Shown: positions 1 through 15,816 of the stretch, piece after piece
Position numbering within the stretch: the stretch's first letter is position 1
How the letters are laid out: each line of letters starts with the position of its first letter
Virus record (IMG/VR): IMGVR_UViG_3300020020_000019
Source of the DNA: a virus
DNA: 15,816 nt
Reading direction: 5' to 3' (one strand)
Notes under the pieces: model-generated
Told to the model about the DNA's origin: nothing
Seen by the model: the letters and a program-made list of their open reading frames with translations, nothing else
The model's database searches: none
Made by a program: the position numbers and the translations under genes

Positions 1-127
1 CAGGTCACGTTCCAATTCAAACGCAAGCCCGACGGCCAGTTCGGCACCGCCCTCGCCTGGAAGGTGATTCCCGGCGACGGCTCGGCGTCGACGGCCGGGC
101 CGCCGCCCGGCATGGCCGCCGACGAGC
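1..127. repeat. Terminal direct repeat, copy 1 (identical to 15690-15816); probable circular-assembly overlap
   Basis: Base-by-base comparison of 1-127 with 15690-15816 shows 127/127 identity. The repeat lies inside a coding frame. Confidence 0.95.
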
Positions 128-153
128 CGGTCGACGAGCTCGCCGAGGCGTGA
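1..153 (+). CDS. 3' end of the major tail protein candidate (continuation of 15228-15816 across the circular junction)
   Basis: Frame 1 is open from position 1 (QVTFQFKRKPDGQFG...DEPVDELAEA) to TGA at 151-153. The same peptide is encoded at 15690-15816. The stop overlaps the next GTG start (GTGA). Confidence 0.6.
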   Translation, partial: QVTFQFKRKPDGQFGTALAWKVIPGDGSASTAGPPPGMAADEPVDELAEA

Positions 154-605
154 GCTTCATCGCCGCGACCCGTACCGACACGTTCGACGTCGGCGCCCTC
201 GAACGGTCGATGCGCGCCGCCAACCGGGACGTCGGCCGGGAGCTCGGCCGCCTCGCCCGCAAGGCGCAGCTCGACGCCGCCAAACAGGTCCGCGGGTCCC
301 TGACGCTGTCGGGGATGGGAGTCCGCCTCGGCGTGCGGGCCCGCACGTTCGCCGGTGCCGTGTCGACGACCGTCGAGGTTGAGGCCCGCCCGCCCGGCCC
401 GTGGGCGATCGTCGAATCCGGCGCCAGCGCGCACACGGTCCGGGCCCGTCGGGCCCGGGCCCTGCGCACCCCGTACGGGCCCCGCGTGTCGGCTGAGCCG
501 AAACGGCAGACCGGTCGGCGGGTGTGGACGCGGGCCACCGAACGGGCCGCCCCGGTCATCGACCGGGCCGTCGCCGATCTGTTCGACGACGCGTTGACGG
601 AGTGA
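150..605 (+). CDS. HK97 gp10-like head-tail / tail-completion family protein (151 aa), in the position usually held by tail assembly chaperones
   Basis: The GTG start overlaps the upstream stop. The basic protein has a gp10-like pattern (WAIVESGASAH resembles the YA..VE.GT motif, with an ARR...R..W C-terminal part). High GC3. Confidence 0.4.
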   Translation: MSFIAATRTDTFDVGALERSMRAANRDVGRELGRLARKAQLDAAKQVRGSLTLSGMGVRLGVRARTFAGAVSTTVEVEARPPGPWAIVESGASAHTVRARRARALRTPYGPRVSAEPKRQTGRRVWTRATERAAPVIDRAVADLFDDALTE

Positions 606-609
606 TCCG

Positions 610-2691
610 GTGGCCGGCCGCGACCTCAACTACCGCATCACCGTTGACGCCGCCGCCGGGACGGCCGGGATCCGCGATTTTTCGCGGGCCGTGAACCGGG
701 AGCTGCGCAGCGTCGACAAGTCGCTTGACGAGACCGGCACGAACGCGACGCGGGTGGCCCGGGCCCTCGGCGACATGGCCGATCAGGCCGAAACCGAGCT
801 GCGCGCCGCCAGCCGGGCCGCCGAGGCCCTCGGCCGGGCCCTCGGCCCGGAGCTGGCCGCCCGCATGGGTCAAGACGGCATCGCCGAAAAGGTCGGTGAC
901 CTGACCCGGCTCGGTCTGTCGTTCGAGGAGATCGAGGCCGACGCCGAACAGCTCGCCGCGGCGATCAAACGGATCGACGACGTGCAGGTATCGGCCGTCG
1001 ATCAGGGGATGGGCAACCTCAACGGCCGGCTCCGCGAGGCCCGCGAGAACGCCGATCAGTCCCGTTCGGTGTTGGCCAACATGGTCGGCAACTCGACGCA
1101 GTCGATCGCCGGGTTGGGTGGGGTCGTCGGCGACCTCGGTGTCGGATTGGGCCAGCTCGGCGAGTACGCCACCGAGGGTGGGATCGGGTTGGCCGGGCTG
1201 GCCACGGTGGCCGGCCCGATGGCCGGTCTGGCCCTCGTCACCGCCGCCGTGTCGAAGTACATGGGGGTGATCGCCGAGACGAAAGCGTTCAATCAGGACC
1301 GGGTCCGCGGGTTCGCCGACGCCCTCGACGACGCCGCCGTGTCGGCTGGGGAGCTCCAGGACATCCTCGCCGGCAAAGAGGACCCGACGTCGCTGATGGC
1401 CCGCATTGGATCGCAGACCAAAGATGTCGAGGACTCGGTGCGGGCCGTGATGGGCACGTTCGAGGATTTCAACCGGATCGTGCAGGGCGGCGCCGATGAG
1501 TTCGACCGGTGGGCCGCCGGTCAGCTCGCCGTCGCCGCCGCCGCCGGCGCCTCCGAGGAGGAGCTGCGCAACCTCGACGCCGCGTTGCAACAGGGGTTGC
1601 GCTCGACGCAGGCCAACTCGGCAGTCGCTCTGGCCCTCGGCGACGGCTACGACGATGTCGTCGACGCCGCGTTCGCCGCCGGCGCGGCGATCCGCCAGAA
1701 GGGGGAGGCCGAACGGGAGGCCGGCCGGGACGCCGCGTTCTACGGGGAGGCCACCGAGGACGCCACCGACGCCACCCGCGCCTACACCGACGCCGAGCTC
1801 GAAGCGGTCGCCGCCACCCTCAACCAAGTCTCGGCCCTCATCGCTGCGAACACCGCGATGGGGGAGATGGCCGACGCCCGCCGGGCCGCCGCCGACTCGA
1901 CGTTCGCCGCCCGCGACGCCGAACGCGACTTCCTCGAACAGCTCAAGACCACGGCCGAGCAGATCGCCGCCGCCCCGGGGATGACGCAGGAGAACGCGGC
2001 CGCCCTCGACGAGCTCGCCCTGGCCGCCGGCCGGGCCGCCGACAGCCAAGTCCAGCTACAGAAGGATTCGATGGCGTCGATGGGGGCGACGCAGGACGCC
2101 ACCGACGCCCAACACACCTGGAATTCCTCGATGTTGAATTCGGCCCGCACCACGGACGGGCCGATGCGGCAGGCCATCGTCAACTACATCGCCCAAGTCA
2201 ACGGGATACCGCCGGAGAAGGTGTCGGAGATCCTCGCCGACCCGCAGTACGCCACGATCGAAGCGGCGGCCGCCGCCCTCGACGCCGCCGCCGTCCCCCG
2301 TACCGCCACCGTCACCGCCGAGTCATCGAATGTTCGCCCGACCGAGGACGAGCTGAACAACCTGGCCCGGCCGCGCACCGTGCAGATGTCGGTCAACATC
2401 CGTCAGGTCGGCGCGTTCGCCCCGCCCAGCTATGCGACGACGACGGCGACGGCGACGGCGGCCCGCCGGCCGCGCGCCCTGGCCGTCGGCGAGGGTGCTG
2501 ACCCCGCCCCGGCCGCTACTGCCGGAGTGGCCGCTACCGGGGTCGGCCCCATCTACCTGGACGCCCCGACGTCGGCCGTTACCCCGGTCACCGTCGACAT
2601 GCGTGGCGCCATCCTCGGTTCCCGTTACGACGTCGTGCGCACCGTCCGCGACGCCGTCCGCGACGGGGTCCGCCTGGCCGGAAGCCGTTGA
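610..2691 (+). CDS. Tape measure protein (693 aa)
   Basis: It is the largest ORF. GGAG lies 8-9 nt upstream of GTG 610. The sequence is Ala/Glu/Arg-rich and helical, with a Gly-rich hydrophobic segment (GLGGVVGDLGVGLGQLGEY...GLAGLATVAGPMAGLALVTAAV). It sits between tail-tube and tail-tip genes. Confidence 0.8.
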   Translation: MAGRDLNYRITVDAAAGTAGIRDFSRAVNRELRSVDKSLDETGTNATRVARALGDMADQAETELRAASRAAEALGRALGPELAARMGQDGIAEKVGDLTRLGLSFEEIEADAEQLAAAIKRIDDVQVSAVDQGMGNLNGRLREARENADQSRSVLANMVGNSTQSIAGLGGVVGDLGVGLGQLGEYATEGGIGLAGLATVAGPMAGLALVTAAVSKYMGVIAETKAFNQDRVRGFADALDDAAVSAGELQDILAGKEDPTSLMARIGSQTKDVEDSVRAVMGTFEDFNRIVQGGADEFDRWAAGQLAVAAAAGASEEELRNLDAALQQGLRSTQANSAVALALGDGYDDVVDAAFAAGAAIRQKGEAEREAGRDAAFYGEATEDATDATRAYTDAELEAVAATLNQVSALIAANTAMGEMADARRAAADSTFAARDAERDFLEQLKTTAEQIAAAPGMTQENAAALDELALAAGRAADSQVQLQKDSMASMGATQDATDAQHTWNSSMLNSARTTDGPMRQAIVNYIAQVNGIPPEKVSEILADPQYATIEAAAAALDAAAVPRTATVTAESSNVRPTEDELNNLARPRTVQMSVNIRQVGAFAPPSYATTTATATAARRPRALAVGEGADPAPAATAGVAATGVGPIYLDAPTSAVTPVTVDMRGAILGSRYDVVRTVRDAVRDGVRLAGSR

Positions 2692-2692
2692 C

Positions 2693-4009
2693 ATGGCCGC
2701 CGTGCGTGCCTTGCTCGGCCCGGTGCCGGTGTTCCCGTGGGCCGAGCTCGGTGTCGGCGACGTCCGCTCCCCGTCCGGTCAGGCCCGGTGGGATCAGTCC
2801 CGGTGGGATGCGCCCGACGCCCGATGGGCCGGCACCGAGCCGACCTGGCTGGATGTGTCCTGTGAGGTCAACTCGGCCGAGTCCGACACCGGCCGGACCC
2901 GGGTCGTCGAACGGTTTCGGCCCGGCGCCGCCGAGGTCGTGCTCCTCAACGTCGACGGGTGGGCCGACCTGACGCCGCCGCCGACCCCGCCGGCCCTGCT
3001 CCCGCTACGCCCGGGCCGCCAGTTCCGCTACGGGGTCGACACCCCGACCGGCCGGCGCATCCTGTTTCGCGGCTACGTCGACGAGGCCGTCCCGATCTAT
3101 CAGCCCTACGGCACCGACGTCGTGCTGTGTTCGTGCATCGATGCCGTTGGGGAGGCCGGCCGGGCCGCCCTCGACCCGTTGCCGGCCCCGGTCGGTGACG
3201 GCGACACCGTCGACGTCCGCCTCGGCCGCATCCTCGACGCCCGCCAGTGGCCGAGCAACTATCGGGATCTGGCCCCGACGTCGGTGCGTCTGCTCGCCTC
3301 GACGCTCGGCGGCGCCGTCGTCGATCTGCTCGGTCAGGCCGCCGACTCCGGGGGTGGTGCCGTGTTCGGCGATCTCGCCGGCCGTGTCGCCTACCGCGGC
3401 CGGGACTGGCAAACGTACGTGCCGGGCACCCCGCCCGACGCCACCGTCGGCAACCTCGAGCCGGGCGACGTCTGCCCGTCGACGTGGGAGCTGTCGTTCC
3501 GGCGTCGTGACGTGACGACCGTGGCCCGCCTCGGCCGTTCCGCCGACTCGCATGTCACCGTCGTCGACGAGGCCGGCCGCCGCGTCGCCGGGTTCGAGCC
3601 GTTCACCCGTTCCGATCTGCTGACCGCCGACGATGCCACCCTGACCACGCTCGCCAACCGGATCCTCGAGACCCGGGCGGTGGCCACGATGCCACGTGTC
3701 GAGGCCGTCACCCTCGACGCCGCCACCGACCCCGGTGATGGCCGGGTCGTCGAGCTGATGGCCACCGCCCGCCCGGAGACCCCGACCCGGATCCGTTGCC
3801 GGCTCCGGGCTCGTGACGGCCGCGCCGTGTTCGACGTCGACATGTTGGTCACCGCGGTGCGTCACACGATCACCGACCGCGGCCGCTGGTACTGCCGGCT
3901 GACCCTCGACGCCGCCGCCCCGTTCGCCGCCGCCGGTGGCCGTTGGGACCGGGCCGGGTGGGACCGCTCAACGTGGACCGACGTCGTACGAGCCGTGGAG
4001 GTCGTCTGA
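2693..4009 (+). CDS. Minor tail protein, distal-tail (Dit / Sipho_tail)-like (438 aa)
   Basis: ATG lies 2 nt after the TMP stop. The pattern F-R-G-Y-V-D...C-I-D-A...R-I-L...GGAVFGD..GRV.YRGRDW resembles phage tail family proteins. Position is immediately after the TMP. Confidence 0.55.
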   Translation: MAAVRALLGPVPVFPWAELGVGDVRSPSGQARWDQSRWDAPDARWAGTEPTWLDVSCEVNSAESDTGRTRVVERFRPGAAEVVLLNVDGWADLTPPPTPPALLPLRPGRQFRYGVDTPTGRRILFRGYVDEAVPIYQPYGTDVVLCSCIDAVGEAGRAALDPLPAPVGDGDTVDVRLGRILDARQWPSNYRDLAPTSVRLLASTLGGAVVDLLGQAADSGGGAVFGDLAGRVAYRGRDWQTYVPGTPPDATVGNLEPGDVCPSTWELSFRRRDVTTVARLGRSADSHVTVVDEAGRRVAGFEPFTRSDLLTADDATLTTLANRILETRAVATMPRVEAVTLDAATDPGDGRVVELMATARPETPTRIRCRLRARDGRAVFDVDMLVTAVRHTITDRGRWYCRLTLDAAAPFAAAGGRWDRAGWDRSTWTDVVRAVEVV

Positions 4010-4407
4010 TGGCATTCCCCGAACACGTCGCCCCCGACGAACTGATCGAGTCGGCGTGGGGCAACGCCGTCGTCGACGCCCTGTTCACCGTCGCCGTCGC
4101 CGCCGACATCAACGGGCAGACGAGGGAAGGGGGCCGGCTACGCATCCAAGCCGGCGTGATCACCGCGACGACCGACGTCAACGGTGACATCACCATCCCC
4201 CTCGGCGGCGCCGCCGCCTACGACGGCAACCCAGTGACCCTCATCATCCCGGCCACCCCGACTCAACCGTTGATGGTCACGGTACTGACGTCCAGCCCGG
4301 CCAGCGCGACGGCCCGTGTGTGGTGGGGGTCGGGCGCCGGCATCGGCACCCCGGTCGCCAATGGGACGTTCGCCTTTTTCTGGTTCGCGATCGGGCTACG
4401 ACCCTAG
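4009..4407 (+). CDS. Small minor tail / putative tail-tip or receptor-binding protein (132 aa)
   Basis: The ATG overlaps the upstream TGA (TGATG). High GC3. The sequence looks beta-rich (ITATTDVNGDITIPLGG...VTVLTSS). The call rests on position in the tail module only. Confidence 0.35.
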   Translation: MAFPEHVAPDELIESAWGNAVVDALFTVAVAADINGQTREGGRLRIQAGVITATTDVNGDITIPLGGAAAYDGNPVTLIIPATPTQPLMVTVLTSSPASATARVWWGSGAGIGTPVANGTFAFFWFAIGLRP

Positions 4408-5702: not shown

Positions 5703-5957
5703 ATGCCCCGCCGGCCCTTCCCCGGCGCCGGGGTCCGCGATTGGGTCGCCCTCGTCCTGGCCCTCGGCATCGCCGTCGGGTTGAACGTGATCCTGCTCGC
5801 CGTGCTGTATGACGCCATCGCCTCGGCCGGGCCCGGGCTCAGTGAGAACGCCACGCAGATCATCACCGGCGCGTTCGGCGGGATCATCGGCGTGCTCGGG
5901 TCGTATCTCGGATTCCGCGCTGGCGAGAAACAGAACGACGAACGACCACCGCCGTGA
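5703..5957 (+). CDS. Holin, two transmembrane helices (84 aa)
   Basis: There are two hydrophobic helices (WVALVLALGIAVGLNVILLAVLY and ITGAFGGIIGVLGSYLGF) and a charged C-terminus (RAGEKQNDERPPP). It lies directly after the endolysin. Confidence 0.7.
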   Translation: MPRRPFPGAGVRDWVALVLALGIAVGLNVILLAVLYDAIASAGPGLSENATQIITGAFGGIIGVLGSYLGFRAGEKQNDERPPP

Positions 5958-5996
5958 TGCGACATCGGTGGTGGAGATTCCACGGCCGATGTCGCA
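5958..5996. terminator. Strong hairpin directly after the holin stop (11-bp + 5-bp stems)
   Basis: tgcgacatcgg-tg-gtgga-gat-tccac-gg-ccgatgtcgca. Both arms are perfectly complementary. It lies between convergent transcription units and has no U-tract. Confidence 0.5.
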
Positions 5997-6024
5997 ATTC
6001 GCGATGTGCTAACAGATCGCGAAT
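5997..6024. terminator. Second hairpin / 9-bp inverted repeat with 10-nt spacer (attcgcgat-gtgctaacag-atcgcgaat); terminator or recombinase core-site candidate
   Basis: A perfect 9-bp inverted repeat directly abuts the first hairpin. It lies between the + strand late operon and the - strand int unit. Confidence 0.4.
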
Positions 6025-6032
6025 CCACCTGG

Positions 6033-6134
6033 TCACGGCCACCAGCCCTGGCGATACATCCACTCGGCGAGGAGCACCCCGAGCGGCGGCGCGATCAACG
6101 CCACCAGGGTGCCGTAGTAGCGGAGTCGGCTCAT
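6033..6134 (-). CDS. Candidate 33-aa single-pass membrane peptide (MSRLRYYGTLVALIAPPLGVLLAEWMYRQGWWP), absent from the ORF track
   Basis: Hand translation of the reverse strand. It runs from ATG to TGA and about 31/33 codons end in G/C. It has a hydrophobic core with a Trp-rich end. It lies 40 nt downstream of int on the same strand. The RBS is weak. Confidence 0.35.
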   Translation of the reverse strand: MSRLRYYGTLVALIAPPLGVLLAEWMYRQGWWP

Positions 6135-6174
6135 GGCACTCGCGCTCTAAACAAAGTCAACGAACCCCTGGTCA

Positions 6175-7014
6175 TCACGCCGCCGGCAACTGCAGGGCGC
6201 GCGACGTCGCCGCCGTGCGCTCGGGGAGACAGGCCGTGTAGATCTGCGTCGTCGCCACCGAGGCGTGGCCGAGCAGGTCGCGCACCGCCAGCAGGTCGGC
6301 GCCGGGTACCTGCAGCGCCGCCGTCGCGCATCGGTGGCGTAGCTGATGTGCGGTCGTCGCGTAGCCCGCGGCGTGGATGGCCAGGTTGACCCGTTGCGAG
6401 ACCCGGTGGGCCAGCATCCGCCGCCCGGTCTGCCCGACGAACACGGCGCCGTCGCGCCGGCTCGAGGCCAGACGCAGCGCGGCGAGGGTGCGCGTCACGT
6501 CCGTTGACAGGCTGATCAGGCGTTCCTTGTCGCCCTTGCCGTTGACGATCACCGTTCCCGCGGCCAGATCGACGTCGCGCCAGTCGAGCCGTGAGCACTC
6601 GCAACACCGCAGGCCGGCGCACGACATCAACGCGAACAGGGCGCGCAGCTGGACGTCGTCGGTCTGCACCAGCCGGGCGATCTCCCGATCGGGTGCCGGC
6701 CGCGGCAGACGCGCCGGCACCTTTGGCCGGTCGACGAGCGTGGTCGGGTCGCCGTCGGCCAGGCCCTCGCGCTGCAACCACCGGTAGAACGCCCGCAACG
6801 CGACGAGCAGGGCGCGCGTCGAGCTCGCTGCCAGGCCGCGGTCGCGGGTCCACGCCTCGACGTCGCGGTAGGTCGCCGCCGCCGGGTCGGGGTGTCGACA
6901 CAGCCACTCCCCGGCCACCGCGAACCGCGGCCACACCGTGCGCGGCGCGAACCGGCCGGTCATGTACCGGCGGTATGCGTCGAGGTCGACGTCTGTCCCT
7001 CGATCGTGTGACAT
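6175..7014 (-). CDS. int: Tyrosine integrase, XerC/D-like (SAM-like core-binding domain + catalytic domain, no arm-binding domain)
   Basis: The catalytic signature is present: AGLRCCE (Arg), GKGDKER (Lys), HQLRHRCAT (His-x-x-Arg) and LGHASVATTQIYT (His, Tyr). Start chosen at ATG 7014 (MSHDRG...). The longer ATG 7053 start adds 13 codons with poor GC3, includes a rare TTA codon, and collides with the divergent gene. Confidence 0.85.
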   Translation of the reverse strand: MSHDRGTDVDLDAYRRYMTGRFAPRTVWPRFAVAGEWLCRHPDPAAATYRDVEAWTRDRGLAASSTRALLVALRAFYRWLQREGLADGDPTTLVDRPKVPARLPRPAPDREIARLVQTDDVQLRALFALMSCAGLRCCECSRLDWRDVDLAAGTVIVNGKGDKERLISLSTDVTRTLAALRLASSRRDGAVFVGQTGRRMLAHRVSQRVNLAIHAAGYATTAHQLRHRCATAALQVPGADLLAVRDLLGHASVATTQIYTACLPERTAATSRALQLPAA

Positions 7015-7066
7015 AGTGGGCACGGACTGTAACTGACTGGATCGAGACGACATGCATGTGATTAGA
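7015..7066. promoter_or_regulatory. Divergent int / early-operon control region with a TAGAAT -10-like hexamer (7063-7068) and the motif ATGTGATTA (7056-7064)
   Basis: This is the only non-coding DNA between the two divergent units. TAGAAT fits the actinobacterial TANNNT -10 form. A CATGCATG palindrome lies at 7051-7058. Confidence 0.4.
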
Positions 7067-7285
7067 ATGACATCGATGGAATCCCGACCTGACTACCTCG
7101 ACGTCGACCAAGTGATGGAGCTGCTGCACATCCGTTCGAAGACCACGCTGCACCGCTACCTCGGTGAAGGACTGCCCTCCCATCAGATCAGGCCGGGTGG
7201 CCGTCGCCTGTACGACCCCGTCGAAGTGCGTGCCTGGATCGAGTCTCGATGGAGTGAACGCAACGCAGATGACGGCGCCGCGTGA
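7067..7285 (+). CDS. Excisionase-family / MerR-like HTH DNA-binding protein (Xis or early regulator); start ambiguous (ATG 7052, 7067 or 7076)
   Basis: YLDVDQVMELLHIRSKTTLHRYLGEGLPSHQIRPGGRRLYDPVEVRAWIES matches the HTH_17 excisionase pattern (L..S..T..R......P......R.....D...W). It is divergent from int. Confidence 0.7.
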   Translation: MTSMESRPDYLDVDQVMELLHIRSKTTLHRYLGEGLPSHQIRPGGRRLYDPVEVRAWIESRWSERNADDGAA

Positions 7286-7449
7286 TCACGATCGACGTCG
7301 CCATCGCCAACGCCTACGACGCGCTCGGCGCCGCCGAACGCAATCTTGCCGCTGCCGCTGACGCGCTCCGGGCCGCGACCGAAGCGCTCGAGCTCGGCGG
7401 GGCCGCCGTCACCTACGCCCGTGGCCAGCTGCGCGAGATCGTGGAATGA
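7282..7449 (+). CDS. Small Ala-rich helical hypothetical protein (55 aa; VITIDVAIANAYDALGAAERNLAAAADALRAATEALELGGAAVTYARGQLREIVE), absent from the ORF track
   Basis: Hand translation. There is a GTGA overlap upstream and an ATGA overlap downstream. High GC3. Confidence 0.5.
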   Translation: MITIDVAIANAYDALGAAERNLAAAADALRAATEALELGGAAVTYARGQLREIVE

Positions 7450-7769
7450 GCGCCGTCAACCTGCGGGCCATGCAGTACGCCCGCACCGTCTGCATGGAGG
7501 CGCCCGACATGCGCATGGCGCCGCGGGCGCTGCTGCTACTGCTGTCCACCTACGCCGATCAGGCCGGCGTGTGCTGGCCGTCCGTTGGCACGCTCGCCAA
7601 CGTGCTCGGGCTGACCCCGGCGAACGTGCGCCGAGCTCGCCGGGACCTCGTCGGGCGCGGACTGATCGCGCTCGACGCCCGGCCCGGACACTCCTCGATC
7701 GTCCGCTTCCCGGTCGTCGCGCACACCCTCCGCGCCGTCCCCCGGGACGCCGACGAGGCCGCCGGATGA
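7446..7769 (+). CDS. Winged-helix / HTH_36-like DNA-binding protein (107 aa); candidate replication initiator or repressor
   Basis: PRALLLLLSTYADQAGVCWPSVGTLANVLGLTPANVRRARRDLVGRGLIAL resembles the PF13730-type helix-turn-helix domain seen in phage and plasmid replication or regulatory proteins (recognised from memory). Confidence 0.6.
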   Translation: MSAVNLRAMQYARTVCMEAPDMRMAPRALLLLLSTYADQAGVCWPSVGTLANVLGLTPANVRRARRDLVGRGLIALDARPGHSSIVRFPVVAHTLRAVPRDADEAAG

Positions 7770-7779
7770 CCCGCCGGGA

Positions 7780-7788
7780 TTGTCCACA
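7780..7788 (+). promoter_or_regulatory. Exact match to the high-GC actinobacterial DnaA-box consensus TTGTCCACA
   Basis: The sequence ttgtccaca lies 10 nt after the HTH_36-like gene stop and directly abuts the palindrome array. It is a single copy, so a chance match is possible. Confidence 0.35.
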
Positions 7789-7890
7789 CCCCGCGCGGTG
7801 GCGCGCGGGGTCGCGGCCCCTGACCCCGCGCGGTACCGCGCGGGGGGGGCGCGCGGCACCGCGCGGGGGGGGCGCGCGGTACCGCGCGCC
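7789..7890. repeat. Array of four GC-only palindromes (CCCCGCGCG-gtgg-CGCGCGGGG, then three CGCGCGG(T/C)ACCGCGCG) with two G8 spacers; includes two tandem 23-bp units
   Basis: The four elements lie at 7789-7810 (9-bp arms), 7824-7845 (perfect 22-bp palindrome), 7850-7865 (one central mismatch) and 7871-7890 (perfect 20-bp palindrome). Tandem units GGGGGGGGCGCGCGGYACCGCGC lie at 7842-7864 and 7865-7887. No credible ORF covers the region. Confidence 0.85.
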
Positions 7891-7922
7891 AGAACAAACC
7901 AATGAACAGACCAGTAGAACAA
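7891..7922. repeat. AT-richer segment with three GAACA direct repeats spaced 12-13 bp (7892, 7904, 7917)
   Basis: aGAACAaa / tGAACAga / aGAACAag. This is one of the AT-richest stretches of the window, adjacent to the GC palindromes. Confidence 0.5.
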
Positions 7923-7980
7923 GGGCTTTCATCCCGCTACGCGCGCCAGCGACGCCGCGACGATCGGTGAGCCTTTCGTC

Positions 7981-8190
7981 ATGACCGCTCGGGAACTGTT
8001 CGAGGAGCTCTGTCGCCTACACGACCGGCACGACCTCGGATTCGTTCGATACACCGACGCGCTGCGGATCGTCGGCGGCGCTCACATCACCGCGCAACGT
8101 CTGCTCCAGGAGCTCGTCGAGTCCGAGATGATCGTCTGGCAATCAAACGGGATGATCATCCCCATGCGACGAAAGGCCGAGAGTGCCTGA
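7981..8190 (+). CDS. Hypothetical early protein (69 aa), possibly winged-helix
   Basis: ATG-initiated ORF with coherent helical sequence (ITAQRLLQELVESEMIVWQSNGMIIP). GC is lower than in the structural genes. The stop TGA lies inside the first copy of the junction motif. Confidence 0.55.
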   Translation: MTARELFEELCRLHDRHDLGFVRYTDALRIVGGAHITAQRLLQELVESEMIVWQSNGMIIPMRRKAESA

Positions 8191-8461
8191 CGAACCGCTG
8201 TTCGTTTCCGATCCTGACCGCGACGTGACGATGGCGCTCTACACCGCGCTGTACGTAGACGAGGGTATGGCGACGGTGGCCGCTCGACGGGTGGCGGTCC
8301 GATGGTCGCGGCCGATCGCTGTCATCGGTGCGGGTGTTCACTCGATCGGCGCGTCACCGTTCAGCGGCGAGCGGGTGTGGGCGATGTTCGATCTGACCGA
8401 GGACGACACGGGCGAAGTACGTCGCCGGGCAATCGTCGTTGTGGAGTCGGGCAATGGCTGA
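8183..8461 (+). CDS. Hypothetical early protein (92 aa) starting M-P-D-E-P-L-F
   Basis: GTG 8183 is preceded by GAAAGG. There is an 8-nt overlap with the upstream gene (GTGCCTGA). The start context is identical to the next two genes. Confidence 0.55.
   Translation: MPDEPLFVSDPDRDVTMALYTALYVDEGMATVAARRVAVRWSRPIAVIGAGVHSIGASPFSGERVWAMFDLTEDDTGEVRRRAIVVVESGNG
8187..8203 (+). repeat. Gene-junction motif, copy 1: CTGACGAACCGCTGTTC
   Basis: Identical 17-mer to copy 2. It begins at codon 2 of the downstream gene and contains the upstream gene's stop. Confidence 0.9.
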
Positions 8462-8666
8462 CGAACCGCTGTTCAATTCCGGTGTGTTGCACCCTGAGCA
8501 CATAGCAATCGAGCCGCAGTCGATCGACGAGGCGCGGCTACAGATGTGCGCTCAGCTTCACCATGCGATGTACGGCGGGGTGTGGGCTCGACCAGAGTCA
8601 CCCGCCGTCATGTGGGCCGAGATGCTCGACCGCATCGACCGTGCCGCACGGCAGTTCCGCCGATGA
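8454..8666 (+). CDS. Hypothetical early protein (70 aa) starting M-A-D-E-P-L-F
   Basis: ATG 8454 has GGAG 7 nt upstream. There is an 8-nt overlap with the upstream gene (ATGGCTGA). Confidence 0.55.
   Translation: MADEPLFNSGVLHPEHIAIEPQSIDEARLQMCAQLHHAMYGGVWARPESPAVMWAEMLDRIDRAARQFRR
8458..8474 (+). repeat. Gene-junction motif, copy 2: CTGACGAACCGCTGTTC
   Basis: 17/17 identical to copy 1, with the same position relative to start and stop codons. Confidence 0.9.
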
Positions 8667-8806
8667 CTGACGAACCGCTGTCCATCAGCGCCGCGCTCGA
8701 GGTCGTCGACGCGGAGACCCTCGACCCGCTCGTCTGGCCCGATGAGGTCGCGGCGCTACGTGTGCTCGCCGCCGAAGTGCGGCGTCTACGGGAATCGGAG
8801 CAATGA
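8663..8806 (+). CDS. Hypothetical early protein (47 aa) starting M-T-D-E-P-L-S
   Basis: ATG 8663 overlaps the upstream stop (ATGA). The sequence is an amphipathic helix. GC3 drops over the last ~20 codons, where frame 0 (the next gene) has better GC3. Confidence 0.45.
   Translation: MTDEPLSISAALEVVDAETLDPLVWPDEVAALRVLAAEVRRLRESEQ
8667..8683 (+). repeat. Gene-junction motif, copy 3: CTGACGAACCGCTGTCC
   Basis: 16/17 identical to copies 1 and 2, again starting at codon 2 of a small ORF. Confidence 0.9.
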
Positions 8807-9074
8807 GTCCCGTTGCATCTGCATCGATCGCGCTAGCGTTCGATCCGTGGCCGGTCGTCCACCGCTCGCTCTCCCATCGCACGGGACCCGGGCCCGGTAC
8901 CAGTCCCGTCAAGGTGCCTGCCGGTGCCTGCCGTGCCGGCAGGCGAATGCGGGCTATCAGGCCGCCTATCGGTCGGGTGCCGTCCGCGAGACCTCGGCGG
9001 TCTCGGCCGATGGGCGCGGCGTACAGCTCACGCTCCCGACGCATGAGCACCACGTCATCCGCGCCGGGCGGTGA
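8742..9074 (+). CDS. Cysteine-motif (HGT..Y...C-x-C-x2-C) small protein, probable zinc-binding DNA-binding partner or N-terminal module of the HNH endonuclease; start uncertain (ATG 8742, GTG 8760 or GTG 8847)
   Basis: The frame contains SHGTRARYQSRQGACRCLPCRQANAGYQAAYR, a motif I recall as recurrent in actinophage HNH-associated and DNA-binding proteins. GC3 is better than in competing frames. The stop overlaps the HNH start (GTGA). Confidence 0.5.
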   Translation: MRSRRYVCSPPKCGVYGNRSNESRCICIDRASVRSVAGRPPLALPSHGTRARYQSRQGACRCLPCRQANAGYQAAYRSGAVRETSAVSADGRGVQLTLPTHEHHVIRAGR

Positions 9075-9331
9075 ACCCGTACCGCGACCCGGAGCACCGG
9101 GCCGCCGTGGCCGCCCTGCACCGGCATCCCGTCATCTGCCGGTGTGGGGCGACGGCCACGACGATCGATCACGTGCCGCCGCTGGCCCTGCACCGTCACC
9201 GCCGCGGTTCGGGGTGCTGTGTCGGTGTGCCGCGTTGCGCGCCGTGCAACTACGGGGCCGGGGCGCGCATCGCCGCGGTCCGTCGGCGCGCGTTCGCGCG
9301 TCGACGTCCGAACGCGTCGCGCGTCTGGTGA
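9071..9331 (+). CDS. HNH endonuclease (86 aa)
   Basis: CRCG...IDHVPPLALH...CAPCN gives the CxC / DH / CxxCN beta-beta-alpha-metal layout. It lies just upstream of the terminase genes, as in HK97-like cos phages. Confidence 0.75.
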   Translation: MNPYRDPEHRAAVAALHRHPVICRCGATATTIDHVPPLALHRHRRGSGCCVGVPRCAPCNYGAGARIAAVRRRAFARRRPNASRVW

Positions 9332-9345
9332 CGTCGCGGATTTTT
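9302..9345 (+). terminator. Candidate intrinsic terminator at the end of the early operon (7-bp outer stem cgacgtc/gacgtcg, inner acgcg-tcg-cgcgt hairpin, then T5 run at 9341-9345)
   Basis: Complementarity was checked by hand. The T5 run is one of very few T-runs in the window. The stem is modest and the loop is long. Confidence 0.3.
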
Positions 9346-9422
9346 GGGGCTCGTGGCGGGCACCGCCGCTCCCCCACCTGTCTCTCTCCGATGGGGGTCA
9401 TGACCCTCGAATATGTGATTAC
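9346..9422. promoter_or_regulatory. Structured non-coding region between HNH and small terminase; candidate cos / packaging-recognition and late control region
   Basis: Elements present: hairpin ccccca-(15 nt polypyrimidine loop)-tggggg at 9371-9397, a perfect 12-bp palindrome GGGTCATGACCC at 9395-9406, and the ATGTGATTA motif at 9413-9421. The position is typical of cos in HNH-dependent packaging systems. Confidence 0.4.
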
Positions 9423-9779
9423 ATGACCGGCCGCCGGCCCGGCCAGGCCCCGCTGTTCCCGCCGGATCCGCCCGGATCGCGCCGGATCGGCCGGGTTCGC
9501 CGTGGATGGGACGTGACCGTGCGAGCTCTGCGGGCGACGGGCCGGCTGGAGCCGTTCGACGAGGCCGTGATCCGTCTCGGCCGGGTCGTCGCCGATCAGG
9601 CCGACGCCATCGAGCACGACCCCGAGCAGTCGCCGTTCGTGCGCAACGCCCTGTACAAGACGATGCTGACGACGATCATCACCCTGCGCGACCAAACCCG
9701 ACCCGATGCTGACACTGCCTCCCTCGACGACCTGCTCGCCGCTCTGGTGCACCTCGAGGACGCCGGCCCGGCCGAGTGA
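9423..9779 (+). CDS. terS: Terminase small subunit (118 aa)
   Basis: ATG 9423. The sequence (VRALRATGRLEPFDEAVIRLGRVVADQADAIE...) resembles P27-family small terminases. It lies directly upstream of and overlaps the large terminase. Confidence 0.6.
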   Translation: MTGRRPGQAPLFPPDPPGSRRIGRVRRGWDVTVRALRATGRLEPFDEAVIRLGRVVADQADAIEHDPEQSPFVRNALYKTMLTTIITLRDQTRPDADTASLDDLLAALVHLEDAGPAE

Positions 9780-11124
9780 CGGCGCCCATGTCGCCGCGTT
9801 CGCCCGGGCCATCGGCCGCCCGCTGATCCCGTGGCAACGCGACGTCGCCGACCTGACCGGCGAGCGCGACCCGGCGACTGGTCTGCCCGCGTATTCAAGG
9901 GTGGTCTTGATTGCGCCGCGCCGGGCCGGCAAATCGGCGCTGATGCTGGCCCGCGCCCTGGCCACGATCCGCGCCCCGCACGGCCGGGCGTTCTACACCT
10001 CGGCGCATCGGGAGAACGCGGCGCGGATGTGGCGCGACGACTGGTTTCCGACCGTCGAACGTTCCGCCCTCGGCCCCTACACGCGCCTCGTCTACGGCAA
10101 CGGGTCCGAGACCATCGCCTACCGCAAGGGTCTCGGCGGGTCGACGTTCCGTCTCGTCGCCGCCAGCGGTGACGCCATCCGCGGCGCGGCGACGAACCTC
10201 GTCATCATCGACGAGGCCCGCGGGCTCAGTGTCGACGAGGGTGACGAGCTCGAGCGGGCCGTGTTCCCGACGCAGGCCACCGGGGCCGGCGGGCAGACGT
10301 GGATCGTGTCGAACGCCGGCACCGCGGCATCGGCATGGCTGGCCCGCTGGCGCGACCTCGGCCGCCAGGCCGTCGCCGAGGGACGCACGTCGCGGCTTGC
10401 CTACGTCGAGTACGCCGCCCCACCGGACGCTGACCCGGCCGACGAAGCGACCTGGTGGCGGGCCCATCCCGGGCTCGGCCATCACGTCAACCTCGACGCC
10501 TTGCGCGCCGATTACGAGGTCATGGCCCCGGACGCGTTCGCCTGCGAGTACCTCGGCTGGTGGCCCGAGACCCTCGTCGACACCGTTCTCGTCGACGCCT
10601 GGCTCGCCGGGGTCGCCGACGTCGCCCTCGTCGACCCGGTCGTGTTCGCCCTCGAGGTCGACGAGGACCGCACGACCGCCTCGATCGTCGCCGCCGGCAG
10701 CGGCGGGGACGACCGGGTCGTCGTCGAGCTCGTCGAGCACCGCCCTCATGGGCCGTGGGTCGGCCCGCGTCTCGTCGAGCTCGCCGAACGCTGGTCGCCG
10801 ATGGCCGTGGTGTGGGATGCCGGCGGCCCGGCCGGCGCCCTGGCCCCCGAGCTCGTCGAGGTCCCGACCCGCCTCGTCCCCTACCGCACCGCCGAGGTCA
10901 CCGCCGCCGCCGGCTGGTTCTACGACCGTGTCGTGTACACCGCCGATGTCGTGCACCGCGCCGATGTCGACCTCGACGGCGCGATTGCCGCCGCCCGGCG
11001 TCGTCGGGCCGGCGGCGCCTGGCTGTTCGACCGTCGCCAGCCCGGCGCCTGCCCGTTGATCGCGGCGACGATGGCCGTGTGGGCGCACCGCGACGCCACC
11101 CTCGGCCGTCCGAGCGTCACCTGA
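9706..11124 (+). CDS. terL: Terminase large subunit (472 aa)
   Basis: Walker A is present in VLIAPRRAGKSAL and Walker B in LVIIDEA, with a C-terminal nuclease-like region. ATG 9706 is the only canonical in-frame start upstream of Walker A, giving a 74-nt overlap with terS. Confidence 0.85.
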   Translation: MLTLPPSTTCSPLWCTSRTPARPSDGAHVAAFARAIGRPLIPWQRDVADLTGERDPATGLPAYSRVVLIAPRRAGKSALMLARALATIRAPHGRAFYTSAHRENAARMWRDDWFPTVERSALGPYTRLVYGNGSETIAYRKGLGGSTFRLVAASGDAIRGAATNLVIIDEARGLSVDEGDELERAVFPTQATGAGGQTWIVSNAGTAASAWLARWRDLGRQAVAEGRTSRLAYVEYAAPPDADPADEATWWRAHPGLGHHVNLDALRADYEVMAPDAFACEYLGWWPETLVDTVLVDAWLAGVADVALVDPVVFALEVDEDRTTASIVAAGSGGDDRVVVELVEHRPHGPWVGPRLVELAERWSPMAVVWDAGGPAGALAPELVEVPTRLVPYRTAEVTAAAGWFYDRVVYTADVVHRADVDLDGAIAAARRRRAGGAWLFDRRQPGACPLIAATMAVWAHRDATLGRPSVT

Positions 11125-11274: not shown

Positions 11275-12456
11275 ATGGGCCGCCGTTCTGCCGCCCGCGC
11301 CAAGGCCGCCGAGGCCCGCGCCGCCGCCGATGGCAACCTCGGCGCCATCGAGCGGATCATCGCCGACGCTCAGGCCCGCCGCGAACGCCTCGGCGATCTG
11401 TCCCCGTTCGAGCTGCCGATCGTCGTCGCCTGCCGCCAGCTCGTCGCCGACACCGTGGCGCAGCTCCCGTTCGTCAACTTCCGCGGCAACCTGCCGACCG
11501 CGGAGCAACCGCCGATCGTGATCCGCCCCGATCCGTGGGAGCCGCGCTGGCAGACGATGCACCGTCTCGTCATGAACCTGACCGGCCCCGGCTACGTGTG
11601 GCTGATCCCGACCGCGTTCTACGCCGACGGTGTCACCCCGGCCGCCGTGCGTGTCGTCGACGCCGCCGAGGCCGCCGGCACGTTCGACCCGTCCGGCCGG
11701 CTCGAGCGGATCATCTGGCAGGGCAAGCGCTACGAGCCGGGTCCGACCGGCGCGGTGTGGGTCCCGTGGCGCGTCGAACGGGTCGGCACCCTCGGCTCGG
11801 GCCCGATCGGGTCGTGCGTCCGGGCCGTCGAGTACCTCGCCGCCCTGTGGCAGATGGCCGGATCATTCTGGGAGGCCGGGTTCCCGTCGATCGCCCTGGT
11901 CATCGAACAGGCCCTCTCGACGACGCAGAAACGGGAGGCCAAAGAAGAGATGCTCGGCGCGTTCGCCCGCCGGCACGAACCGGCCGTCGTCGACCGTGGC
12001 GGCCGCCTCGAGGCGATCGGATCGAACGCCGTCGACTCGCAGCTCGTCGAGTCGATCGAGGTCGCCAATGCCGAGGTCGCCCGAGCGTTCGGGGTCATGC
12101 CGTCGCTGGTCAACGTGCGCGCCGGGGACTCCCTCACCTACGCGACGACCGAGGCCGAACTGTCGAAGTGGCTCAAGCTCGGATTGGGCGCCTACCTGAT
12201 GCGCATCGAGGCCGGGTTCTCCGAGCTGCGCCCGCTCGGCCAGCATGTCCGCGCCGACACCTCGGCCTTGCTGCGCACCGACCTCAGCGCCCGCTACGGC
12301 GCCTACTCGGTGGCCCTCGGCCGCTGGCTGACCGTCGACGAGGTGCGCGCCGCTGAATCGTTGCGTCCGATGCCGGCCGGCACGTTCCCCGGCGAGCCGA
12401 CGTCGCCGGCCGTCACCCCGTCCCCGTTCCTCGACCCGTCAGGAGTACTCCCGTGA
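11275..12456 (+). CDS. Portal protein (393 aa; alternative TTG start at 11266)
   Basis: The size and the position between terminase and protease/capsid fit a portal. High GC3. The stop overlaps the next GTG start. The family was not confirmed by a named motif. Confidence 0.7.
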   Translation: MGRRSAARAKAAEARAAADGNLGAIERIIADAQARRERLGDLSPFELPIVVACRQLVADTVAQLPFVNFRGNLPTAEQPPIVIRPDPWEPRWQTMHRLVMNLTGPGYVWLIPTAFYADGVTPAAVRVVDAAEAAGTFDPSGRLERIIWQGKRYEPGPTGAVWVPWRVERVGTLGSGPIGSCVRAVEYLAALWQMAGSFWEAGFPSIALVIEQALSTTQKREAKEEMLGAFARRHEPAVVDRGGRLEAIGSNAVDSQLVESIEVANAEVARAFGVMPSLVNVRAGDSLTYATTEAELSKWLKLGLGAYLMRIEAGFSELRPLGQHVRADTSALLRTDLSARYGAYSVALGRWLTVDEVRAAESLRPMPAGTFPGEPTSPAVTPSPFLDPSGVLP

Positions 12457-14219
12457 CCGTCACCGTTCCCGCGTTCCGTTCGACCGCCACGATCGCCCCG
12501 GTGTGGCATGCCGGCCGCCGGGCCGCCGTGACCGCCGGCCCCGACGACCTGACCCTCGAGGCGTGCGTCGTGCCGTGGCACACCGCGGCCCGGGTCACCG
12601 ACGACGGCCGCACGTTCTACACCGAGACCTGGTCGCCCGGCTCCCTCGTCCCCGAGGACCGGGTCGTCATCTACGACGGCCATGTCCCCGGCGGTGGCGG
12701 GGACGGCCAGCTCAACTCGGACCGTCAACCGATCGGCCGGGCCGACACGTTCACCGAACGGCCCGACGGGCTGTATGCCACGCTGCGCCTGGCCAACACG
12801 TCACGCGGCCGTGACGTCTACGAGCTGGCCCGCGTCCTCGGTTTCGTCAACGTGTCCCTCGAGGCCGACGTCCCCGTCGGTGGCACCGGGACCGTGGCCC
12901 GCACCGCGGCGACCCCGTGTCCGCTGACCGGGATCGCCGTCGTCCTGCCGCCCGGTACCGGCGCCTTCCCCGGCGCCGTCGCCGCCGCCGGCCGGGCCGC
13001 CGGGGACGAGGACGAGACCGACGAGACCACCGACGACGAGACCACCGACGACGAGACCACCGACGAGACTGACGCCCCGGCCGGCCGGGCCGCCGTCGGC
13101 GAGCTCGTCCGCGCCGAGCTGGCCCGCTACGGGATGACCCCGGGCCGCCGCCCGTCCGGCCGCACCGCCGGACCGCTGGCCCGTTTCGCCAACTTCCGTG
13201 AGTTCGTCACCGCGGCCCGGGCCGCCGAGGGTGACCGGGCCGCCGAGCTGCGCACCGCGTTCGCCGCCGCCTACCAGCAATGGCGCGAGCTTGACCGGGT
13301 GGCCGCCACCGGCGTCGTCGGACGGGCCCTGTTGGATCAGGTCACCGCCGACAACCCGGGGCTGATGCCGCCGTCATGGCTGACCGAGGTGTTCGGCATC
13401 GTCGACCGGGGCCGCCCGTCGGTCACCGCCCTCGGCGGACCCCGCAACCCGGGCGACGCCGGCATGGATGTCTATTGGCCGTACTACGACGGCGACCTGC
13501 TGGCCATCGTCAAAGAGCAGACCCCGACCGAGAAGAGTCCGATCAACTCGGTCAAGGTCAGCTTCAAACGGGGCCAGGCCACGCTCGACACGTTCGCCGG
13601 CGGGTCCGATGTCAGCTACCAGCTGCAACGCCGCTCTTCGCCGTCGTACATGGCCCTCTATGACCGCATCCTGCAGATCGCCTACGGGCTGACCACCGAG
13701 GTCGCGTTCGCCACCGTCCTCTCCGCCGTCGACGCGACACCCGAGGCGTATGATCTGGCCGCCGACACCGACGGCTCCGCGTTCCGGGCCGTCCTGTTCG
13801 GCGCCTCGACCGAGGTCCGCAACGTCACCGGCGAACCGGCGTCGGTGGCCCTCGCCGCCACCGACGTGTTCATCGCCCTCGGCGGCGCCCCGTGGCTGTG
13901 GCCGCAGATGTACGGCACACAGAACACGGCCGGCACGGCGCAAGCCTCGACGCTGACCATCTCGGTGTCCGGGTTGACGATCACCGAGGCCCCGGGCCTG
14001 CCGGCCGGGACCCTCATCATCACCAACCCGGGCGCCGCGGCATGGTTCGAGGAGGGACCGTTCATCGTCACCGCCGAGGACATCGAGAAGCTCGGCACGA
14101 ACGTCGCGATTTGGGGGATGGGCACGGCCGGGGTGTTCCTGCCGGCCGGGGTCGTCGAGGTCACCGTCACTCTGCCCGCCCCGCTCGGCGCGGCGACCAA
14201 GCGTTCGGCCGCCAAGTAG
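12453..14219 (+). CDS. Prohead (HK97 S78-like) protease / scaffold-like linker / HK97-fold major capsid protein fusion (588 aa)
   Basis: AGGAG lies 7 nt upstream of GTG 12453. The N-terminal ~170 aa are protease-like (YDGHV...GLYATLRL...NVSLEA). An acidic repeat linker and a helical segment follow. The C-terminal ~330 aa are capsid-like. No separate protease or capsid gene is found elsewhere. Confidence 0.7.
   Translation: MTVTVPAFRSTATIAPVWHAGRRAAVTAGPDDLTLEACVVPWHTAARVTDDGRTFYTETWSPGSLVPEDRVVIYDGHVPGGGGDGQLNSDRQPIGRADTFTERPDGLYATLRLANTSRGRDVYELARVLGFVNVSLEADVPVGGTGTVARTAATPCPLTGIAVVLPPGTGAFPGAVAAAGRAAGDEDETDETTDDETTDDETTDETDAPAGRAAVGELVRAELARYGMTPGRRPSGRTAGPLARFANFREFVTAARAAEGDRAAELRTAFAAAYQQWRELDRVAATGVVGRALLDQVTADNPGLMPPSWLTEVFGIVDRGRPSVTALGGPRNPGDAGMDVYWPYYDGDLLAIVKEQTPTEKSPINSVKVSFKRGQATLDTFAGGSDVSYQLQRRSSPSYMALYDRILQIAYGLTTEVAFATVLSAVDATPEAYDLAADTDGSAFRAVLFGASTEVRNVTGEPASVALAATDVFIALGGAPWLWPQMYGTQNTAGTAQASTLTISVSGLTITEAPGLPAGTLIITNPGAAAWFEEGPFIVTAEDIEKLGTNVAIWGMGTAGVFLPAGVVEVTVTLPAPLGAATKRSAAK
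13020..13064 (+). repeat. Perfect 3x tandem 15-bp repeat GACGAGACCACCGAC, encoding (DETTD)x3, within the acidic linker (13005-13073)
   Basis: Three identical 15-mers were counted base by base, followed by a partial copy (gagac). The repeat is in-frame. Confidence 0.9.
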
Positions 14220-15231: not shown

Positions 15232-15816
15232 CCCGCACCCTGTTCAAGATCACCGCCGGTGTCGTCGCCCTCGACCTCGTCGACCCCGCCGCCGTCGGCT
15301 ACGACCCCGCCTGGCAGGCCCCCGGCGGCAAGACATTGCCGGCCGTCCGCATCGCCGACTACGACGCCCTGACGACCGGCTACGGCTGTCAGCTCGTCAC
15401 CGGGGTCGTGACGGCAACGGCGAACACGACGACCGAAACGATCGACGGCACATGGTGCGATCTCCCGGCGACCGAGCAGATCGCCGGGGCCGACTCATGG
15501 GCCGTGGCGTGGGATCACTACCAGGACCCGACGCTCGCCGACGGGCTCTCGGCCTACCTGTTCGAGCACGCCGGCAAGGACGCCTACCTGTACGTCGGGT
15601 GTGGCGGTGACGGGGTGCCGCCGGTGTTCATCGGCGTCGTCACCCTCTCGGCGTCGTCGCTCGGCGGTGGCCGCTCGGCCGCCCGGTCGCAGGTCACGTT
15701 CCAATTCAAACGCAAGCCCGACGGCCAGTTCGGCACCGCCCTCGCCTGGAAGGTGATTCCCGGCGACGGCTCGGCGTCGACGGCCGGGCCGCCGCCCGGC
15801 ATGGCCGCCGACGAGC
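15228..15816 (+). CDS. Major tail protein candidate, 5' part (total 204 aa; continues at 128-153 through the circular junction)
   Basis: It lies upstream of the TMP region. The segment TETIDGTWCDLPATEQIAGADSWAVAWDHYQDP...GKDAYLYV resembles TP901-1/phi13-type tail tube proteins (from memory). The ORF is open to the window end. Confidence 0.55.
   Translation, partial: MTRTLFKITAGVVALDLVDPAAVGYDPAWQAPGGKTLPAVRIADYDALTTGYGCQLVTGVVTATANTTTETIDGTWCDLPATEQIAGADSWAVAWDHYQDPTLADGLSAYLFEHAGKDAYLYVGCGGDGVPPVFIGVVTLSASSLGGGRSAARSQVTFQFKRKPDGQFGTALAWKVIPGDGSASTAGPPPGMAADE
15690..15816. repeat. Terminal direct repeat, copy 2 (identical to 1-127)
   Basis: 127/127 identity with the window start. Confidence 0.95.

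Follow-up and report, generated by a model that had tools for sequence, protein, structure and literature searches.

A non-coding block at positions 7770-7980 of IMG/VR virus record IMGVR_UViG_3300020020_000019, a stretch of 15,816 nucleotides (nt) analysed here at full length (hereafter the window), is probably a phage origin of theta-type replication, similar to ori-lambda or to the origins of iteron plasmids and served by a truncated initiator encoded directly upstream. Judged from sequence comparison, we put the probability of this reading at roughly 0.68. An earlier note on this DNA had recognised an initiator-like gene followed by a DnaA box, iterons and an easily melted segment as the layout of an origin, with operators or RNA hairpins as alternatives, and the origin is the best supported of these readings. 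It is supported by the annotated PHROG matches of the upstream protein, which are to initiator families only, by the joint change of initiator and array between phages while the phasing is kept, by five analogous modules in related phages and by the meltable AT-rich tract beside the array.

In the mechanism that we propose, dimers of a 107-amino-acid (aa) winged-helix protein would bind four dyad-symmetric sites phased 35, 23 and 23 bp apart. The resulting nucleoprotein array would stress the adjoining 40-bp tract (7891-7932), which would then open, and host proteins would load the helicase, host DnaA at the flanking TTGTCCACA being the obvious candidate helper. Host proteins would have to take on this step because the initiator lacks a C-terminal half and because none of the genes covered by the family scans was recognised as a polymerase, primase, helicase or helicase loader, or as P-like or DnaC-like. 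Binding, melting, the use of DnaA and the start of replication at the block are what we infer from this arrangement.

The window is a complete circular phage genome of ~15,689 bp, since its two ends carry an exact 127-nt repeat (1-127 = 15690-15816) and other assemblies of the same genome, made independently, are circularly permuted contigs of 15,701 and 15,815 nt. The genome has a G+C content of 71.8%.

Architecture of the block

The DnaA-box match TTGTCCACA proposed earlier was confirmed as exact, and it is the only match with at most one mismatch in the 15.8-kb window (Table 1). No further box was found in 7760-7990 at up to two mismatches. The same sequence is listed as a high-affinity DnaA box for Streptomyces coelicolor and Mycobacterium tuberculosis (PMC4285127).

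The box is followed by four palindromes rich in G and C (iterons 1 to 4), whose dyad axes are spaced as given above. The earlier note had drawn all four around a GGYACC centre; the last three do lie 23 bp apart, but the first is imperfect and has GGTGGC at its centre. The repeat unit consists of a 16-bp core and seven G, 23 bp in total. When the core CGCGCGGTACCGCGCG was searched for with up to three mismatches, four sites were found, two of them exact, all within 7792-7888 and none elsewhere in the genome. Tandem Repeats Finder likewise returned the array as the top-scoring tandem repeat of the window (23-nt period, 2.7 copies, 94% matches, score 117). The two G8 runs described as separating the palindromes are the only two in the window and both lie in the block, although the first base of each is still the closing G of the core before it.

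The AT-rich tract begins 3 nt past iteron 4 and is a predicted DNA-unwinding element. As claimed earlier, it contains GAACA three times (at 7892, 7904 and 7917), so that a span of 30 nt accounts for 3 of the 16 copies on the plus strand of the genome. The segment 7893-7932 holds the lowest-GC 30-nt window (0.37, tied with 7052) and 40-nt window (0.40) of the genome and, by nearest-neighbour energy, is its second least stable 40-mer. Beyond the tract, positions 7936-7949 form a possible extra half-site (Table 1).

The block had also been described as free of open reading frames (ORFs), which is loosely true: mechanical ORFs cross it, but they carry no codon-position GC signal there, and according to the stored gene calls of four assemblies the interval from the HTH_36 gene to the gene after it is empty. 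One such frame, ORF 7346-7984, has 212 codons in a frame other than that of the HTH_36 gene, spans both this gene and the array, and has a stop codon (7982-7984) that overlaps the next ATG (ATGA). We considered a frameshifted long initiator running through the array along this ORF and rejected it, as the protein ends ahead of the array in the window and in its two closest relatives alike, and the codon-position signal is missing. Judged non-coding, the ORF could be a relic of a longer ancestral initiator with an array-encoded linker, as in related phages.

The block, including the lengths of the G8 runs, is identical in the window and in four other assemblies (one from JGI, two from ENA and one from Logan; the samples may be related), so it is not an assembly artefact.

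The upstream gene encodes a putative truncated initiator

The 107-aa protein matched the Pfam domain HTH_36 (5.7e-10) and, below the cut-off of that family, the RP-C N-terminal domain (6e-4). Against PHROGs it matched nine families, eight of which are annotated as 'replication initiation O-like', 'replication initiation protein' or 'primosomal protein', and no regulator family was among the annotated matches. Four of the families are O-like (phrog_391 at 1.8e-9, and phrogs 345, 678 and 8540) and three are 'replication initiation protein' families. The matches span only the first ~70-160 positions of profiles that are 196-455 positions long, and the proteins P0002 and P0003 behaved in the same way. 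In addition, gp23 of the Arthrobacter phage Taj14 resembles the protein at its N-terminus (34% identity over 53 aa).

An AlphaFold model gave a winged helix with a predicted local distance difference test score of 77, residues 93-107 being predicted as disordered. Foldseek searches with this model returned weak matches to generic ArsR, MarR and GntR regulators, none at E<=1e-3, and they do not discriminate between an initiator and a regulator; a sequence search of solved structures with the protein gave no match. Searches of viral, genome and metagenome collections for loci encoding the 107-aa protein were negative. By its profile matches and its model, the protein looks like the origin-binding N-terminal half of a lambda-O-type initiator that lacks the half recruiting the helicase loader: a C-terminal domain for this recruitment (the O-P interaction) is not present. 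As the stop codon of the gene (7767-7769) stands ahead of the array, the putative origin is intergenic and not inside the initiator gene.

Protein and array vary together in the closest relatives

Only two further proteins of this type, 62% and 66% identical, were present in a collection of 5.8 billion proteins, and a profile search found no relatives beyond these first three. The two short contigs concerned, L005 and L006, resemble the window in that a T.TCC.CACCCC flank and palindromes follow the stop codon directly, and this flank is the longest nearly invariant stretch in an alignment of the three. In both, a motif resembling a DnaA box is joined to CCCC after the stop codon: TTATCCCCA-CCCC in L005, and ATGTCCCCA-CCCC together with a second element, CTATCCACA-CCCC, in L006. 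The spacing of the palindrome axes in L005, 35 and then 23 bp, is exactly that of the window; in L006 it is 36, 45 and 23 bp.

The arms, in turn, differ between the phages: CCCC-GCGCGG-TA-CCGCGC in the window, CCCC-TGTCGG-TA-CCGACA in L005 and CCCC-TCGCCC-TA-CGGCGA in L006. The palindrome copies nevertheless agree with each other within each phage. The L005-type palindromic site is CTGTCGGTACCGACAG, and the L005 counterpart of iteron 2, CCCCTGTCGGTACCGACAG, shows three compensatory base-pair changes relative to the window. Where the window has G8 spacers, the relatives have CCCACCCC or CCCCACCCC at the same place and with the same 23-bp period. The start of the predicted recognition helix also differs among the three proteins (PAN, DRN and PTS). 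Conserved layout and phasing combined with co-varying arms are expected of a cognate protein-site pair; conserved hairpins would fit the co-variation too, but leave the fixed 23-bp period unaccounted for.

Analogous modules occupy the same slot in other small actinophages

Searches based on TerL and integrase led to a family of 12-16 kb viral contigs with a mosaic early region. In all five phages in which the slot was readable (L008, L022, L030, L031 and the cultured Arthrobacter phage Taj14), a DNA-binding gene with its own phased repeat array follows the MerR/HTH_17 gene. The latter follows the integrase in four of them, and the lytic Taj14 has a small helix-turn-helix (HTH) gene in that place. 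The array lies inside the ORF in all five, in or just past the region after the DNA-binding domain. An AT-rich tract comes after the array in four, directly in L022, Taj14 and L030 and after a short G+C-rich repeat in L031; none was found after the array of L008. A summary tally gives initiator-family matches in four of the five, and L022 and L030 are listed without such a match.

The comparison with L008 is the most direct. Its TerS, TerL and portal are 96-98% identical to those of the window, its integrase is 50% identical and no other early gene matches; instead, a 207-aa HTH_36 ORF carries 17-bp palindromes, CCGCGCAGcCTGCGCGG, with a 22-bp period just past the winged helix. Initiator and array have thus been replaced together between phages that are otherwise near-identical, as expected of an origin-initiator specificity pair. 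Compared with window positions 6175-9420, L008 positions 1-4050 show a sharp mosaic boundary, the whole integration and replication module being exchanged.

The other modules use different proteins and repeats. The 282-aa ORF of L022, whose N-terminal stretch we read as HTH-like, contains six dyad repeats, GAACTCGGACCGGTATCGGTCC, at 33, 33, 34, 21 and 21 bp, and then an A-rich tract and a C-terminal region. L030 has a 230-aa winged-helix ORF with five AAATGCGCGCGT repeats at 21-22 bp. The 161-aa ORF of L031 matches phrog_2447, 'replication initiation protein', at 1.8e-41, and its GTGA(C/G)TCAC repeats are followed by ...GAAACAAACCA... Gp23 of Taj14 matches Pfam HTH_36 and phrog_8540, 'replication initiation O-like' (2e-102), and its gene contains ACCCGGTGTCGT dyads, TACCCCCGGGGGGGTA twice at 25 bp, and then an A/C-rich AT tract. 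With periods of 21-25 and 33 bp, the arrays come near to whole numbers of helical turns, which counts in favour of an origin because phasing matters for proteins bound to duplex DNA.

Contig L023 carries five copies of a 12-nt tandem repeat, GCGGGTGCAAAT, at positions 1-60, at the contig end and just 5' of the early genes; this array is possibly another origin type.

DnaA boxes and a motif of the AT-rich tracts

Matches to TTGTCCACA or TTATCCACA with at most one mismatch occur at 0.2 per kb across 272 kb of loci. Exact matches number four including Taj14, three of them in high-GC loci, and two abut arrays, in the window and in L030. In L030, the array is preceded by an exact TTATCCACA, for which 10.8 kb hold no second match at up to one mismatch, and the AT-rich tract behind it ends in GAACAAAC. 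Involvement of DnaA is plausible in the window and L030; in general it is unproven.

AACAAAC occurs eight times in 252 kb, and three of these occurrences lie within ~80 nt past arrays (window 7893; L030 3437 and L031 4075, both on the minus strand). AACAAAC / GAACAAAC is common to the AT tracts of three phages whose initiators show no detectable homology to each other, possibly as a motif of the unwinding element or for a host factor that they have in common. We treat this as a lead only, as the motif was picked post hoc and the tracts that host it are AT-rich.

At fairly low odds, the two observations could be combined for a family of the smallest tailed actinophages: a 'half' initiator would mark the origin, and host DnaA together with the single-strand element GAACAAAC would load the helicase, a hybrid of the phage type of initiation with the plasmid or chromosome type. 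If true, such hybrid initiation would explain how 15-kb phages manage with neither a replication enzyme nor a loader.

Points against an origin and alternative explanations

Several points weigh against the assignment of the block as an origin. The initiator is the DNA-binding half of an O-like protein only, which leaves helicase recruitment unexplained, and the combination of a winged-helix protein and phased palindromes would suit a transcription regulator and its operators equally well. The DnaA box of the window is single. L008, L022 and Taj14 have no box with at most one mismatch near their arrays. The seventh base is A in both consensus boxes but C in TTATCCCCA of L005 and ATGTCCCCA of L006. 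As the contigs of these two closest relatives break off within the array, the comparison with them covers neither its right half nor the AT tract. The L022 protein has no family match and the L030 protein only a generic winged-helix Pfam match. Finally, the cumulative GC skew has no inflection at the block: it declines almost monotonically, and its detrended extremes lie near 9600 and 15401. With nearly all genes on one strand, their arrangement dominates the skew, and the check proposed in the earlier note is uninformative here.

The alternative that survives best, which we nevertheless consider unlikely, would make the HTH_36 protein a regulator, for example an immunity repressor or an early/late switch, acting cooperatively on the four palindromes to block or activate transcription into the downstream small, packaging and structural genes. 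The generic winged-helix fold would suit this role, as the closest solved structures are ArsR, MarR and GntR repressors, which are dimers on palindromic operators, and the co-variation of protein and palindromes would be expected here too. No CI-like repressor was identified among the scanned genes of this integrase-carrying phage, and with all genes but the integrase on one strand some internal control point would be needed. The operator idea of the earlier note nonetheless fares worse than an origin, since a promoter scan recognised no sigma-70-like promoter in 6900-9800 and no further copy of the site was found at the divergent int/early promoter region or elsewhere. Moreover, every annotated PHROG match is a replication initiator or primosomal protein, and in the five related phages the array lies inside the gene of the binding protein, with an AT tract in four (directly in three), which is the layout of an origin. 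The same gene-plus-array module is also present in Taj14, which belongs to cluster AN; the published description of this cluster calls its phages lytic (PMC5513430), which argues against an immunity repressor with operators.

It is distinctly improbable that the palindromes act as RNA, as an array of factor-independent or Rho-assisted terminators or attenuators, or of stabilising or processing structures, between the int-proximal early genes and the later ones. The 221-nt region does fold far better than shuffled sequences on either strand (z about -4.3), the stems co-vary, the central tetranucleotide (GTAC, CTAC or GTAG) is roughly kept in the relatives, and the block lies inside a long co-directional transcription unit. 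However, no hairpin is followed by a U-tract and a terminator scan found no terminator in the block, which counts against the earlier suggestion of terminators; mycobacterial RNA polymerase, the sole actinobacterial polymerase tested, is reported to require a U-tract (PMC3993855). Rfam returned no match in the block even at a permissive threshold. The palindromes are symmetric as DNA, and independent hairpins would not explain a 23-bp centre period in three phages of different sequence. In the related phages, furthermore, the ORFs run 60-100 codons past the arrays, which cannot be efficient terminators there.

A packaging (cos/pac) site, or a structure-prone hotspot in which a G-quadruplex, an i-motif or slippage leads to phase variation or recombination, is very improbable: G-runs do flank the hairpins and the L005 and L006 contigs do end inside the array, but these ends fall in near-identical 23-nt tandem units and are read as assembly breaks, the G8 lengths are the same in five assemblies, contrary to the slippage once suggested, and the C-rich spacers (CCCACCCC) on the same strand in the relatives mean that no strand-specific G-quadruplex is conserved. 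The block was also rejected as a cos site because the HNH-TerS junction lies 1.4 kb downstream and related contigs start near there. The conserved order HNH, gap, TerS, TerL puts cos probably at about 9332-9422; within the 90-nt HNH-TerS gap, about 9385-9420 ranks among the spots of the genome that are richest in AT, and five related IMG/VR contigs begin 74-156 nt upstream of TerS.

Genome context

The phage is most likely a small (~15.69 kb), integrase-carrying, temperate, siphovirus-like phage from soil that infects high-GC bacteria. Its gene map was built from codon-position GC, stored gene calls and family scans (Table 1); the integrase is the sole gene on the minus strand. By TerL (29% identity), the closest cultured relatives are small actinophages, including the 15.5-kb Arthrobacter phages of cluster AN, with which the gene order is shared. 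A megablast search with the whole window and a blastn search with the block gave no match in phage and plasmid collections, and PLSDB held no match to the block or to close relatives of the protein. A tRNA scan of the window found none.

Table 1 Predicted features of the block and gene map of the window
Feature	Position	Strand	Basis or remarks
107-aa winged-helix (HTH_36) protein, predicted origin-binding initiator	7446-7769	+	Pfam, PHROGs, AlphaFold
DnaA-box match TTGTCCACA	7780-7788	+	exact; abuts CCCC flank of first palindrome
Iteron 1, imperfect palindrome CCCCGCGCGGT/GGCGCGCGGGG	7789-7810	.	9/11 pairs; axis 7799.5; centre GGTGGC
Iteron 2, perfect 22-bp palindrome CCCCGCGCGGTACCGCGCGGGG	7824-7845	.	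axis 7834.5
G8 run, spacer of iterons 2/3	7842-7849	+	first G is final base of iteron-2 core
Iteron 3, CGCGCGGCACCGCGCG	7850-7865	.	one mismatch to core; centre GGCACC; axis 7857.5
G8 run, spacer of iterons 3/4	7865-7872	+	includes final G of iteron-3 core
Iteron 4, perfect 20-bp palindrome GGCGCGCGGTACCGCGCGCC	7871-7890	.	axis 7880.5; adjoins AT-rich tract
Predicted DNA-unwinding element	7891-7932	+	top strand A/C-rich; GAACA x3 at 12-13 nt spacing; contains GAACAAAC
Possible extra half-site beyond AT tract	7936-7949	+	GCTACGCGCGCCAG similar to iteron 4, right arm; CGCGCGCCAG repeats 7883-7892 directly (10 nt)
First gene 3' of block, 69 aa	7981-8190	+	block boundary; candidate partner of short initiator
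Tail genes	about 610-4400		gene map
Amidase	4853-5698		gene map
Integrase	6175-6963 or 7053	-	gene map
Excisionase-like HTH_17 protein	7052-7285	+	gene map
55-aa ORF	between HTH_17 and HTH_36 genes	+	gene map
Four small ORFs	7981-8806	+	gene map
HNH endonuclease	about 9071-9331	+	motif IDHVPPLALH...CC...CxxCN and similarity to L011 and L015; absent from stored gene calls
TerS	9423-9779	+	followed by TerL
Portal	11275-12456	+	gene map
Large gene in capsid position	12453-14219	+	no family match

The 69-aa protein encoded directly 3' of the block had no Pfam or PHROG match and found only itself among the 5.8 billion proteins (an ORFan). Further downstream, a stretch of ~260 nt (8806-9070) separates the last of the small early ORFs from the HNH gene. 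It lacks both a gene call and a clear codon-position signal, and it includes a tandem repeat of 10 nt, GGTGCCTGCC, at 8913-8937. The region between the lysis genes and the integrase (5957-6175) is lower in GC and holds a 33-aa minus-strand ORF (6033-6134) and a hairpin with a 10-bp stem (GCGACATCGG...CCGATGTCGC) at about 5960-5996. It is the likely place of the phage attachment site attP; no tRNA-like sequence was detected. Inside the capsid-position gene, a perfect 15-nt tandem repeat, CGACGAGACCACCGA (13019-13066, 3.2 copies, 100% matches), encodes a repeated pentapeptide.

Comparison with known systems

The iterons of ori-lambda are 19-bp imperfect inverted repeats that, together with an AT-rich tract, lie in the middle of gene O (PMC7466680). 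The block resembles this origin in its phased array of dyad repeats, here predicted sites, and in the AT-rich tract by the last iteron; ori-lambda has four iterons (six in Shiga toxin (Stx) phages), each an imperfect inverted repeat, with an adjoining AT-rich unwinding tract (PMC7466680). In both, a winged-helix initiator gene lies in cis; the N-terminal domain of the initiator binds the iterons in lambdoid phages, and the window protein matches O-like PHROGs. The differences are that the window initiator has only 107 aa, stops before the array and has no C-terminal domain to recruit a helicase loader, and that no P-like gene is recognised. The iterons of the window are, moreover, almost pure G+C with G-run spacers, and a consensus DnaA box flanks the array. 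To our knowledge, no DnaA box is known within ori-lambda. Because the recruiting domain and the position of the origin inside the initiator gene are both missing, we file the block under the general iteron-origin kind and not under the lambda family.

Taj14, of cluster AN (genus Decurrovirus), is a siphovirus of ~15.5 kb with the same order of TerL, portal, capsid-protease fusion, tail, lysis, MerR/HTH_17, HTH_36, small genes and HNH. Its gp23 bears the annotation 'helix-turn-helix DNA binding domain protein' and shares N-terminal homology with the window protein, and the gene shows phased GC palindromes with C5/G7 runs and then an A/C-rich AT tract. In contrast to the window, its TerL is only 29% identical, it has no integrase, its repeat sequences are unrelated, and the array is translated as a linker from which gp23 continues into a Cys-rich C-terminal domain. 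The published description of cluster AN makes no mention of an origin (PMC5513430).

The theta-replicating Streptomyces plasmids pWTY27, pFP1 and pFP11 likewise pair a rep gene with adjacent non-coding direct or inverted repeats bound by Rep and with AT-rich segments, in high-GC actinobacteria (PMC3583192). Unlike such iteron plasmids, the window is the genome of a tailed phage and carries genes for terminase, portal and lysis. RepA of pWTY27 has 522 aa, as opposed to 107 aa here, and belongs to another family, and the window has no primase/polymerase partner such as RepB. Iterons of ~22-bp period with a DnaA box and an AT-rich tract are the textbook layout of a plasmid origin, and the predicted DnaA box next to the iterons of the window agrees with it, with partial conservation in the relatives. 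The cluster of several DnaA boxes typical of an oriC-like origin is absent.

The block and the HTH_36 gene thus provide a concrete candidate origin/initiator pair for little-studied ~15-16 kb phages of high-GC soil bacteria that encode no replication enzymes, of use for the annotation of cluster AN-like phages and possibly for minimal actinobacterial vectors. Phages with swapped initiators and matching swapped arrays at one position also constitute a natural experiment in initiator-iteron specificity. The design itself is classical, known from ori-lambda and iteron plasmids, and involves no new principle; the novelty lies in a clear series of modules that can be compared across the smallest actinophages, in an initiator of half the usual size and in a possible reliance on DnaA.

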